A DNA stretch of 64,000 bases. It comes from a phage. This document shows, piece after piece, positions 21,986 through 36,140 of the stretch. The notes under the pieces are model-generated. The model worked only from the letters and a program-made list of their open reading frames with translations. It was not told the DNA's origin and did no database searches. How positions within the stretch are numbered: position 1 is the first letter of the stretch; the number at the start of each line of letters is the position of its first letter. The stretch is taken from assembly GCA_036253035.1 (NCBI GenBank), contig GCA_036253035.1_4123.1. One strand, 5' to 3'. The position numbers and the translations under genes are program-made.

Positions 21986-22270
21986 TTTGTATTCCTCTTT
22001 GTGGTTGATGTAAGTATTATACTCGTTTAATTTCTATTGTCAAACTATTTTATCAGGGGAGGTTTTCGTATGTCTTACTCCTGGACTACTTAACGGGGTT
22101 ACTTATTTCGTTCCCCGTCCTGATGTAAAACATTATACTTGATTCTAAGTACAATGCAAGTACTTTTTAAAAATAGTTTTCAGTACTTGATAGTACTAGC
22201 CACCAGCATATAATAGATACATTTATGCACCCTGTGGGTTAGATTGTTTCTATGCATATATAATAGCAAA

Positions 22271-23644: not shown

Positions 23645-24001
23645 CTAGGATAAAATCATTATAGGATATTCACAGTTAATCAGTACTTCAAAACCAAAAC
23701 TTTCATACCATTCTTTAAGATTAAACTCGTTATCTTCTCCCGTATCGCATTCTAAGATGATACAATCTGAATCATCGGCGGCATCAATAAAGGCATTCAT
23801 TAATTCAGTACCTTCACCGTTACCGCGATTATCGGGATCAACATAAAGAGAATCAATAAACGCTACACGATCATAATCAAGATCCGGTGCAACAATGCCA
23901 CGTTTAACAAACCAGTACTGCAATTGTGCTACTTTGCCTTGTACTTGATAGCCAGTGATCTCACCATTGTCTGTAGTACGCGTGATATGTTGTATACCCA
24001 T
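23645..24001 (-). CDS. putative GNAT-family N-acetyltransferase
   Basis: Motif-A-like SLYVDPDNRGNGEGTELMNAFIDAA; TTGACA-N16-TATAAT upstream. Confidence 0.5.
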   Translation of the reverse strand: MGIQHITRTTDNGEITGYQVQGKVAQLQYWFVKRGIVAPDLDYDRVAFIDSLYVDPDNRGNGEGTELMNAFIDAADDSDCIILECDTGEDNEFNLKEWYESFGFEVLINCEYPIMILS

Positions 24002-24064
24002 GATTTCAATCCTCAGTTAAGATATAAAATATTATACACTAACTAACAGCACTGTCAATACTTT

Positions 24065-24322
24065 TTATCTCATAGATCTATGCCAACAATTACGGGGATT
24101 GCGTTTGAATATGCTATCATGATCAGCCTGGCAAGTGATGCAGTACTTACACCCCTTAACGGCCAGGCGGCGATTCTCAGGGATTTTATCGCCGCAGTCG
24201 AGGCAATGTATCAGTGATTCTATTTGTGCGTTAATTTGCGTTCTAGCGTGGTTTACAGCGGCCTGAATCACTGCGTTAATCTCGTCTTGCTCGGCCCCGT
24301 CCTTCGCGAATCCAACAGCCAT
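24065..24322 (-). CDS. DksA/TraR-family C4 zinc finger protein
   Basis: CLDCGDKIPENRRLAVKGCKYCITCQ = C-x2-C-x17-C-x2-C with IP..RR signature. Confidence 0.65.
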   Translation of the reverse strand: MAVGFAKDGAEQDEINAVIQAAVNHARTQINAQIESLIHCLDCGDKIPENRRLAVKGCKYCITCQADHDSIFKRNPRNCWHRSMR

Positions 24323-24485
24323 TATTTTAACCTCATTATAAAAATACTATAGTACTGTAATGCTACAATAATACTACTAGTACTGATTTTATTCAAACCG
24401 TATGATACTACATATTCCCCAGCATTACCACGAATGGTAACGCCTTTGTACTTTCTATATAATTTCAACTACGTTTATTGCCTTT

Positions 24486-24556
24486 GATCAAGATTTGATC
24501 AGAATTATACGCCTTATGCTAAATTGATCCAGTACTTTTTTGATCATTTATTGATC
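24486..24556. promoter_or_regulatory. GATC cluster (5 sites in 71 bp) in long 5' leader
   Basis: GATC at 24486, 24497, 24526, 24542, 24553; two embedded in TGATCA palindromes. Confidence 0.5.
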
Positions 24557-24618
24557 GATATTATATAGTTACATTTGTGCACCCTATGGGTTAGTGACGT
24601 TCTCGTCTTGATGTAAGT

Positions 24619-24647
24619 ATTATGCCAGTACTGGCATAATTTGTCAA
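24619..24647 (-). promoter_or_regulatory. sigma70-like promoter (TTGACA-N17-CATAAT)
   Basis: -35 at 24642-24647, -10 at 24619-24624; leader contains conserved dyad ACCCATAGGGTGC. Confidence 0.5.
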
Positions 24648-24651
24648 TAGA

Positions 24652-24849
24652 TTATTTTAACTTTTTTCTGTCATTGATTAATGCTTTCAGTACTATACTA
24701 ATGATCTGCAATGATTCATCAATGACTATAAAATTATTTTCTTTCATTAGATGATAGTTACCATTGATTGTATATTCTAAGGAGTACTGTTTACGTTTAA
24801 TTTTTGATAATGTTTCTATTTGTTTTTGTACTGATTTCATGCTAATCAT
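24652..24849 (-). CDS. hypothetical protein (66 aa)
   Basis: Start moved to ATG of MISMKSVQ. Confidence 0.45.
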   Translation of the reverse strand: MISMKSVQKQIETLSKIKRKQYSLEYTINGNYHLMKENNFIVIDESLQIISIVLKALINDRKKLK

Positions 24850-24943
24850 TGTTAAACGTCCTGTAACGCATTCTAACGAGTTAAACGGTTTAGTACTGGC
24901 TAAAGGATTAAAGCCCACCAGCGTTAACCAGTGGGCTATAATC

Positions 24944-25087
24944 TTACATCTTGCGGATAATCTTAACAGTATCTTTCACCGATTTACCGTCTTGCTGACA
25001 TTGTTCGATCATCGCGTATTGTTCTGCGGTCAGATCCTCGCCAGTTTTTGCCAGTACTGCGTCGATGAATGAATCCAGTGCGATCAT
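24944..25087 (-). CDS. hypothetical small protein (47 aa, below track cutoff)
   Basis: Manually translated MIALDSFIDAVLAKTGEDL...; AGAGAG RBS; TTGACA-N16-TATAAT upstream. Confidence 0.4.
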   Translation of the reverse strand: MIALDSFIDAVLAKTGEDLTAEQYAMIEQCQQDGKSVKDTVKIIRKM

Positions 25088-25186
25088 TTTGTTTCTCTCT
25101 TAGGTTAAGTTAACTACTGTTTATAAAACTTATTATACAGTACTATCAAACTATGTCAATATCTTTAATAGTACTGGTAATATATT

Positions 25187-25366: not shown

Positions 25367-25449
25367 TTTAGTATTCCTTAGTAGTGTAGTTGATAAAAGT
25401 TATTATGCCAGTACTATCAATCATTGTCAATAGTACTGTGATAATATTT

Positions 25450-28560: not shown

Positions 28561-28641
28561 TTTAATTTCCTCTTAGTTGTCTTGATAAAATCTATTATGC
28601 CAGTACTATCAATCTATGTCAATAGTACTGTGATAATAATT

Positions 28642-28854: not shown

Positions 28855-28936
28855 TTTCTTTTTCCTCTTAGTTGTCTTGATAAAATCTATTATGCCAGTA
28901 CTATCAATCTATGTCAATAGTACTGTGATAATAATT

Positions 28937-30912: not shown

Positions 30913-31024
30913 TTGTATATCCTTTGTTAGTACTAGGGAGTATTCCCGATTAGATGTAAAACATTATACGCATTTAAAAACTATTATCAAGTACTTTAAT
31001 ATAAAAGTATTTGAAAAAAAAGTC

Positions 31025-31053
31025 TTGACAACTGCATCCAGTACTGGCATAAT
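31025..31053 (+). promoter_or_regulatory. plus-strand sigma70-like promoter (TTGACA-N17-CATAAT)
   Basis: -35 at 31025-31030, -10 at 31048-31053; downstream transcript would carry dyad ACCCACAGGGTGC and end at hairpin 31134-31151. Confidence 0.5.
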
Positions 31054-31059
31054 ACTTAC

Positions 31060-31160
31060 ATAAAGACGAGATAGTCACTAACCCACAGGGTGCATAGATC
31101 CGTCTATTAAATGATTCAGTACTGCAAAATAAAGGGGATCGTTTGATCCCCTCTGTATTA
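31060..31160 (+). ncRNA. candidate small non-coding RNA (~100 nt)
   Basis: Region between plus-strand promoter and hairpin/U-rich tract; no ORF; contains family dyad motif. Confidence 0.3.
31134..31151. terminator. bidirectional terminator hairpin
   Basis: GGGGATCGTTTGATCCCC flanked by A/T-rich tracts on both sides; downstream of minus gene 31158..31379. Confidence 0.5.
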
Positions 31161-31379
31161 CTTAGTAAGATATAAACAAAAATCACCTTTCTTTGCTACG
31201 CCGCCAGTGTAACGCGATGAATAGTTAGAAACGTCTTGCACTTCTGCAATGACGAGCGTATCATCATTTATTTCGTCGCAAAAACATACTGCGGGATCTT
31301 CTACGCCAATATTGTCAGCATGTGCCCGCATAGATTTAACCAGTGCTTCAAGCTGGGAAAGAGTAGTGATATTAGCCAT
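31158..31379 (-). CDS. hypothetical protein (73 aa)
   Basis: ATG with AAGGAG RBS; hairpin; TTGCAA-N16-TATAAT. Confidence 0.6.
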   Translation of the reverse strand: MANITTLSQLEALVKSMRAHADNIGVEDPAVCFCDEINDDTLVIAEVQDVSNYSSRYTGGVAKKGDFCLYLTK

Positions 31380-36051: not shown

Positions 36052-36140
36052 ACTCACTACTGATCACTACTGATCACTACAGTGATTATAAATGATTACT
36101 TAAATGTTTATATATGATTACTTATGACTACCTATGATTA
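36052..36140. repeat. short tandem direct repeats (CACTACTGAT x3; ATGATTAC x3)
   Basis: ctcactactgatcactactgatcactacagtgattataaatgattacttaaatgtttatatatgattacttatgactacctatgattac. Confidence 0.55.

Follow-up and report, generated by a model that had tools for sequence, protein, structure and literature searches.

The window (the whole 64,000-nucleotide stretch of phage DNA analyzed here) comes from an Asteriusvirus, a 121Q-like jumbo coliphage. It shares 97.2% identity with Escherichia phage 121Q (Asteriusvirus, 348.5 kb), and ~70 related jumbo phages match it. The cluster of GATC sites considered here belongs to an accessory cassette of 329 bp (24323..24651, minus strand), which consists of promoters, GATC units, and a small gene. 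The elements of the cassette are arranged on the minus strand in the order P1 (a promoter), a 17-mer, GATC unit 1, P2 (a second, predicted promoter), GATC unit 2, and the gp293 gene.

The gp293 and DksA/TraR-like genes

A 48-aa gene of the gp293 family, which starts with TTG, occupies 24322..24468 on the minus strand; it is annotated in 121Q and belongs to phrog_38664. A weak ribosome-binding site is present upstream of this gene, and its stop codon overlaps the ATG of the following gene, which encodes a DksA/TraR-type C4 zinc-finger protein (24065..24322, minus strand; PF01258, E 2e-11; phrog_54). Homologues of gp293, all of which match phrog_38664, are found in PBECO4, Erwinia phage Hallingskeid, Pectobacterium phage CBB (where the gene is unannotated), and 8 metagenome clusters. 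The PBECO4-type ORF is equal in length to gp293 and is 65% identical to it, despite the divergence of the DNA. These sequence comparisons establish the small ORF as a genuine gene. The original prediction had described the region between the promoter and the DksA/TraR-like gene as a leader of ~290 nt; this is wrong in detail because the conserved 48-aa gene sits between the two. The annotation is thus corrected: the "leader" includes a genuine small gene as well as a second, predicted promoter, and the boundary of a mobile cassette can be defined.

An AlphaFold model of gp293, made from a 12-sequence alignment, has a pLDDT of 90.6 and consists of four strands followed by a helix. The protein has no Pfam domain, and the best PDB match in a structure search (E 0.66) is not significant. 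An exhaustive search with the protein added just composition-biased repeat proteins (P0012-P0014), which were treated as spurious. The idea that gp293 is an autoregulator was rejected, given a model that lacks a DNA-binding fold, the lack of a Pfam domain, and the lack of the GATC sites in homologues of the CBB clade. The DksA-like gene is the downstream neighbor of the cassette and lies outside it, and its upstream neighbors in relatives are quite different. A link between the GATC cluster and the DksA-like gene was likewise discarded: distant homologues of this gene, including those of T4-like phages, have unrelated upstream genes and are without the cluster. Promoter-like sites closer to the DksA-like gene are present at 24396..24368.

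An accessory cassette within the terminal repeat

At least 80% of the cassette is covered in 27 phage records, which form a group with 93-99% identity (121Q-type) and a group with ~78% identity (PBECO4-type Asteriusviruses). In phAPEC6, the cassette is absent, and the gp292 homologue ends in a stop codon that overlaps directly with the ATG at the start of the DksA-like gene. Matches in ph0011 and UE-S1 are ~300-320 bp shorter, which is similar to the length of the cassette. The indel is bracketed exactly by two copies of an 11-bp direct repeat, ATTATTTTAAC: the left copy (24321..24331) covers the last gp293 codons and the junction with the start of the DksA-like gene, and the right copy (24651..24661) covers the last codons and the stop of gp292. 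Terminal inverted repeats or another transposon-like structure were not found for the cassette, which has the 11-bp direct repeat only. Since phAPEC6-type phages are without the entire cassette, any control exerted by the cluster is non-essential.

T4-type phages have mobile early-promoter cassettes (PeSL), as reportedly described by Arbiol, Comeau and Krisch in 2010. Like the PeSL, the cassette is a short block that combines a tiny gene with one or more early promoters of its own, is present or absent among close relatives, has short repeats at the gene junctions, and appears in varied gene contexts across phages. However, in a PeSL the repeat is the promoter stem-loop itself, whereas here it is the 11-bp duplication at the junction. 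To our knowledge, neither the GATC units nor the 17-mer has a counterpart in T4.

In the related phage vB_Ec-M-J, the place homologous to the cluster is within an annotated direct terminal repeat of 21.5 kb. Mapped onto the window, this repeat extends from ~15.5 to 36.0 kb (~20 kb), with the left physical end of the genome near 35,990. Given the limits set by this mapping, the cluster lies ~11.5 kb inside the direct terminal repeat. The repeat is crowded with small minus-strand early genes, nearly each of which has its own σ70-type promoter. About 70 bp past the mapped left end, at 36056-36075, there is a tandem direct repeat (ACTACTGATC, two copies), which may be related to the formation of the terminus.

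Predicted promoters P1 and P2 and the 17-mer

P1, TTGACA-N17-CATAAT, is present on the minus strand (24619..24647) as a consensus match, as the original prediction had stated; it has 11 of the 12 positions of the σ70-type early promoter consensus. The promoter also contains a TG before the -10 element and an AGTACT in the spacer, and its start would lie near 24612. P1 is nearly invariant among all relatives, and a paralogous copy is present on the plus strand at 31025-31053. A perfect 22-bp palindrome, ATTATGCCAGTACTGGCATAAT (24619-24640), is centered on the AGTACT and spans the spacer and the -10 element of P1; part of it, AGTACTGGCATAAT, recurs at 25402-25415, 28594-28607, 28889-28902, and 31040-31053. 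AGTACT itself is found 237 times in the window (for example, at positions 24351, 24379, 24531, 24627, and 24689) and 903 times in 121Q versus ~118 expected, while the observed/expected ratio (o/e) of GTAC is 1.4-1.5. In early promoters the hexamer is placed just upstream of the -10 element (TTGACA-N9-AGTACTG-TATAAT), and it also occurs within ORFs.

The conserved 17-mer, CTAACCCATAGGGTGCA, lies at 24578..24594 (minus strand), +19 to +35 of P1. In many Rak2-like phages, the 17-mer is found 17-24 nt past the -10 element of a subset of early promoters; further copies in the window are at 22226-22242 (minus strand) and 31078-31094 (plus strand). In the gp293 cassettes, it always precedes the first GATC pair by 21 nt. 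The 17-mer (CTAACCCAYAGGGTGCA) is often followed by AAATGTATCTAT (loci L038-L051) and holds an 11-bp near-palindrome, ACCCAYAGGGT; it may be an operator, a promoter element, or an RNA hairpin. Another unit with P1 and the 17-mer, a paralogue at 31025-31160 on the plus strand, is 93% identical over 57 nt to 24578-24634. This unit is opposed to the flanking minus-strand genes, has no ORF, and ends in a hairpin, GGGGATCgtttGATCCCC; it looks like the gene for a small RNA of ~110 nt. Similar units of promoter, 17-mer, and terminator are also present in relatives (L038, L039, and L051).

P2, TGGATC-N16-TATAAT, was read from the sequence at 24504..24531 (minus strand), with a predicted start near 24497. 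It falls under the threshold of the promoter scan in the window because its -35 element matches at just 3 of 6 positions. Its homologues score 10/12, TTGATC-N16-TATAAT in PBECO4 and TTGACT-N17-AATAAT in Hallingskeid. We infer that P1 and P2 fire, that protein binds at the sites described below, and that their methylation is relevant. Transcript maps for Rak2/121Q-like jumbo phages were not found in the literature, and the literature found on Asteriusvirus or Rak2-like phages makes no mention of GATC clusters or of these promoters.

GATC sites in the cluster

The five GATC sites of the cluster begin at 24486, 24497, 24526, 24542, and 24553, with successive spacings of 11, 29, 16, and 11 bp, and thus fit within 71 bp. 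Four of them form two 15-bp units, each with two GATCs 11 bp apart. GATC unit 1 (GATCATTTATTGATC, 24542..24556) lies at about -59 to -45 of P2 and +57 to +71 of P1. GATC unit 2 (GATCAAGATTTGATC, 24486..24500), which has one non-A/T base in its center, overlaps the predicted start of P2 (-3 to +12) and is just upstream of the gp293 ribosome-binding site. The single GATC (24526..24529) is in the -35 hexamer of P2, which reads TGGATC here and TTGATC in PBECO4. TGATCA palindromes are present at three of the sites (24485, 24496, and 24541) rather than at the two originally counted. On the plus strand all five sites read TTGATC, accounting for 5 of the 19 TTGATC sequences in the window; on the transcribed minus strand, they read GATCAA.

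The original prediction that GATC is enriched at this locus holds. In the window as a whole there are 147 GATCs (1 per 435 bp), while dinucleotide shuffles yield 170 +/- 14, so a general excess of GATC is absent. The genome-wide count, which had been named as the test that could refute the enrichment, was made with the full record of 121Q, the closest relative of the window. The complete 348.5-kb genome contains 620 GATCs (1 per 562 bp; o/e 0.52-0.57), a density far below that of the cluster. Elsewhere in the window there are at most 3 GATCs per 100 bp; a density of 4 or more per 100 bp is reached in the window only by the cluster and in 121Q only by the homologous locus. For the 329-bp stretch, base composition predicts 0.9 GATC, and 5 are observed. 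With uniform placement, the probability of any cluster of 5 in 71 bp is 0.0024 for the window and 0.006 for the whole 121Q genome.

GATC is not evenly distributed along the genome. A comparison of the terminal repeat (~15500-36000 in the window; 135.2-156.6 kb in 121Q) with the rest reveals an o/e of 0.49 outside, a depletion of about two-fold, and of 0.88-1.2 inside, where there is 1 GATC per 243 bp. The density in the repeat is ~2.5x that in the rest of the genome. When this GATC-richer region (92 sites in 22 kb) is taken as the background, the probability of the cluster is 0.003 (order-3 Markov) to 0.016 (uniform), and the cluster by itself is only moderately significant. These local values, together with the higher GATC density of the repeat, would fit a cluster that arose as a chance or neutral by-product of an AT-rich, palindrome-prone intergenic stretch in a region where GATC is not avoided, its GATCs being without function. 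Furthermore, conservation of the sites within the 121Q-type group is not significant, because only ~6 columns vary nearby. However, the cluster persists in three clades amid sequence turnover, new GATC units are found at different positions of one promoter, and the spacing of unit 1 is fixed (see below). A neutral origin of the cluster is thus quite unlikely.

The original prediction also held that such clusters are typical of origins. A replication origin or transcription-primed DNA-unwinding element, as at T4 origins, with GATCs that serve for sequestration by SeqA as at oriC and P1 oriR, would be consistent with the presence of promoters ahead of a non-coding, AT-rich stretch that holds several GATCs and with the T4-like replication genes that are present in the phage. 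However, a consensus DnaA box is absent within 250 bp (the best sequence, TTATTCAAA, has one mismatch), as are iterons, and the GC skew has no inflection at the cluster; it changes sign only once, near 36 kb, where the genome ends. In addition, the entire block is missing from phAPEC6-type phages. The claim of an origin-type cluster is thus not borne out, and we regard an origin here as highly improbable.

Clusters of TGATCA/G hexamers are also known from packaging. At P1 pac, two groups of TGATC(A/G) hexamers flank the terminase cut at which packaging starts. As described by Sternberg and Coulby in 1990, methylation of these hexamer clusters is said to gate the cleavage. The hexamer TGATC(A/G) fits four of the five sites in the phage cluster, as a terminase/packaging site of the P1 pac type with methylation-gated cleavage would demand. 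However, the mapping of vB_Ec-M-J places the cluster ~11.5 kb from the physical end of the genome, the block is dispensable, and the genome ends of relatives are fixed, with direct repeats of ~21 kb that restriction digestion has confirmed (PMC13070987). We consider a pac-type site to be extremely improbable.

GATC units across clades

Upstream regions of the 121Q type contain five GATCs, as in the window. In PBECO4-type phages, with 78% identity, three of the GATCs are kept, unit 2 is lost, and one GATC is gained beside unit 1. This extra GATC, 5 bp after unit 1, and the GATC in the P2 -35 element make a further GATCA-N5-TGATC over the -35 element. In the Hallingskeid clade, which comprises Hallingskeid and ~10 distinct metagenome sequences, P1 and the 17-mer are followed by unit 1 after exactly 21 nt. 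Here the -10 element of P2 is enclosed in a second unit, GATC-AATAAT-T-GATC, and a GATC is present at -5 to -2 of both P1 and P2. Unit 1 is kept in the 121Q, PBECO4, and Hallingskeid clades, and unit 2 is found only in the 121Q-type group. In the CBB clade, gp293 homologues are preceded by a plain promoter that lacks GATC units.

In more than 15 distinct sequences, unit 1 does not vary and keeps a constant distance from the 17-mer; its distance to the P2 -10 element is 45-48 nt in all clades that carry the units. Unit 1 is therefore shared by phages that infect different host genera; an E. coli phage and an Erwinia phage have 56 bp in common at 87.5% identity. The second unit is at about +5, -36, and -9 of P2 in the three clades and so arose or moved at least three times. 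Its constant location within the core of P2 is what an occluding operator would show and suggests that overlap with the promoter, rather than a fixed sequence, has been under selection. All four independent pairs have the form GATCA-N5-TGATC, with an invariant A following the first GATC and an invariant T preceding the second, and across the clades 11 of the 13 GATC sites read GATCAA on the transcribed strand. In the 121Q genome, the only other GATCA-W5-TGATC is at 215908-215922; this unit, GATCAAAAAATGATC, is identical to unit 1 of PBECO4 and is intergenic, upstream of gp467 and beside TATATAAG.

A conserved motif that is longer than GATC (GATCAA in 11/13 sites and GATCA...TGATC in every pair) would be expected if the units were operators of a protein, phage-encoded or another one of the host, that recognizes TGATCA/GATCAA, with the Dam target being incidental. 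That the units, the 17-mer, and gp293 travel as one module between distant phages also fits such a protein. However, no candidate for the binder was found, and gp293 has neither a match to a DNA-binding fold nor a Pfam domain. Moreover, GATC is counter-selected elsewhere in the genome; that 4-5 copies are nevertheless kept here suggests that the tetranucleotide itself matters. Operators of this kind are possible, although we consider them rather unlikely.

The direction of the motif, GATCAA on the transcribed strand, raises the question of whether it acts as RNA. In this case, the 5' UTR of the P1 transcript would carry five GAUCAA repeats or hairpins that control the translation or stability of the gp293 mRNA or titrate an RNA-binding protein. 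Each pair could form a hairpin of 5-7 bp, and unit 2 abuts the ribosome-binding site. However, the potential of the pairs to form hairpins follows from the palindromic nature of the sites, and the fold of the leader is no better than that of shuffled sequences (z = -0.71). A consensus fold receives no support from covariation (the covariation term is +0.99, and a double change is seen in 1 of 17 pairs), and the structure is broken in PBECO4. Furthermore, Rfam yields no match for 23900-25100, where the best hit has an E of 0.8, or for 30950-31250. An RNA element is therefore very unlikely.

Candidate readers of the sites

The 15-bp units resemble binding sites for Fis. The consensus for this protein is GnTYAWWWWWTRAnC, with critical positions 1, 4, 5, 11, 12, and 15 (PMC4278767; PMC2816674), and high-affinity Fis sites are a minority of the consensus matches (PMC2816674). 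The sequence GATCA-N5-TGATC agrees with the consensus at positions 1, 3, 4, 5, 11, 12, 13, and 15. Unit 1 has the bases that define a Fis site (G1, Y4, A5, T11, R12, and C15 in 24542-24556) and is the only exact match to the consensus in the 64-kb window; the units of PBECO4 and of the Hallingskeid clade also fit. In 121Q there are three exact matches, two of which are GATC pairs. In E. coli, GATCs within Fis sites are under-methylated (PMC10653831). The strict presence of GATC where Fis accepts other bases (positions 2, 4, 12, and 14) points to the Dam target itself. No match to the IHF sequence WATCAANNNNTTR was found at the cluster.

The other candidates act on GATC directly. Enterobacterales hosts possess Dam and SeqA. 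In addition, 121Q encodes, at a position outside of the window, a Dam-family adenine methyltransferase (gp417, 173 aa, 193985-194506; PF05869, E 7e-32); a C5-cytosine methyltransferase (gp91, 62483-63343; PF00145) is also encoded outside of the window. SeqA dimers bind to hemimethylated GATCs that are arranged in tandem along the same helix face (PMC2691817), and the GATC-rich dnaA promoter is repressed by SeqA (PMC10073500). The 11-bp GATC pairs, which have both sites on the same face, recur in all three clades and agree with the spacing used by SeqA. Consequently, of the original proposal of a promoter regulated by Dam and SeqA, the enrichment of GATC is real, the hosts have both proteins, and gp417 of 121Q is a further candidate enzyme, while the control by Dam/SeqA itself is plausible. 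The proposal is also incomplete, because GATC alone leaves the conserved adjacent A and T unexplained. Neither Fis alone nor SeqA/Dam alone is sufficient: Fis has no need for a strict GATC, and SeqA/Dam have none for the flanking A/T.

Comparison with known systems

The closest likeness in architecture is to the inside end of IS50 (Tn5), which contains the same 15-bp GATCA-N5-TGATC (GATCAGATCTTGATC), fits the Fis consensus, and has Dam targets in both half-sites. The IS50 sequence GATCAGATCTTGATC was verified in more than 230 plasmids, where it lies beside aph(3')-IIa. Fis at the inside end reportedly binds only the unmethylated form, according to work by Weinreich and Reznikoff in 1992. However, the inside end controls the use of a transposase end in a transposon, whereas the phage units are at a predicted promoter.

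In the SeqA-bound regions of oriC and of the dnaA promoter, as in the phage cluster, GATCs are dense, same-face pairs are about one turn apart, and the sites overlap a promoter (PMC2691817; PMC10073500). These regions differ in having 8-11 sites versus the 4-5 in phage, and the phage cluster is without DnaA boxes. Furthermore, the flanking A/T is not required by SeqA, and a chromosomal locus tied to the cell cycle is unlike a cassette in a lytic phage.

At a number of Dam-sensitive promoters (IS10 pIN, Mu mom/OxyR, agn43/OxyR, pap/Lrp, and sci1/Fur), GATCs lie in the core promoter or in the site of a regulator, as they are predicted to in the phage. For Mu mom, where the GATCs are in the promoter/regulator site for OxyR, expression depends on methylation. 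For IS10 pIN, agn43, pap, and sci1, the methylation state also alters expression (PMC10073500, table). Unlike these promoters and repressor sites, the phage units are symmetric 15-mers with GATCs 11 bp apart in register, and phase variation is not expected for a lytic phage.

A possible methylation-sensitive control region

The cluster is most likely a methylation-sensitive control region. It would constitute a conserved and previously undescribed cis-regulatory module whose kind of element is nevertheless known, namely Dam targets in putative protein-binding sites at a promoter; this, too, is the most likely classification. The fuller description, in which the cluster controls a small early-gene cassette, mobile and dispensable, through methylation-sensitive operators, is one that we favor tentatively and to which we give a little less than an even chance.

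In this control region, transcription of the minus strand would proceed from P1, a strong promoter of the host type, through the 17-mer, unit 1, P2, and unit 2 into gp293, with the DksA-like gene translationally coupled behind it. A dimeric DNA-binding protein would use the 15-bp palindromic units as operators, which it would occupy to a degree set by Dam methylation of the GATCs within them; host Dam, the phage Dam-family enzyme, or both would carry out this methylation. Host Fis would be the best candidate to read the unmethylated sites, because both units fit the Fis consensus, and SeqA could bind the same-face pairs once replication has left the GATCs hemimethylated. With a protein bound to it, the unit in the P2 core would silence P2 and interfere with transcription arriving from P1; assistance or cooperation might come from the upstream unit, which is centered near -52. 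Expression of gp293 and of the genes downstream would then be tied to the methylation/replication state of the phage DNA and to the growth state of the host. It is also possible that methylation acts directly on RNA polymerase.

A more elaborate version of this control is a portable "methylation-state sensor", in which Fis (at unmethylated sites) and SeqA (at hemimethylated sites) read the Dam marks on phage DNA as it enters or replicates, to time the synthesis of gp293 and the DksA-like factor, and the module moves between distant jumbo phages of Dam-positive hosts. We consider this version unlikely. If it is correct, gp293 would be a small host-takeover protein whose expression is timed or gated. 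A conserved operator module with Dam targets embedded in Fis-type sites, as in the favored reading, would provide an easily testable case of a lytic phage that times an early gene through host methylation and nucleoid proteins. Such a module would also account for the retention of GATC at the cluster, in contrast to its purging elsewhere in the genome. A change of GATC to GTTC, which retains the Fis consensus and destroys the Dam site, is the discriminating mutation. Were the GATCs to prove inert, the finding would shrink to that of an ordinary AT-rich promoter region.

Another tetranucleotide

GCGC occurs 0 times in the window, where 53-61 copies are expected, and 0 times in the 348.5 kb of 121Q, although the trinucleotides GCG and CGC are both frequent. 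The examined loci of Rak2-like phages (L002, L004-L006, L037-L053, and L062-L066), which include phages of E. coli, Klebsiella-type, Pectobacterium, and Erwinia, all lack it as well. This looks like the total, clade-wide avoidance of one palindrome.
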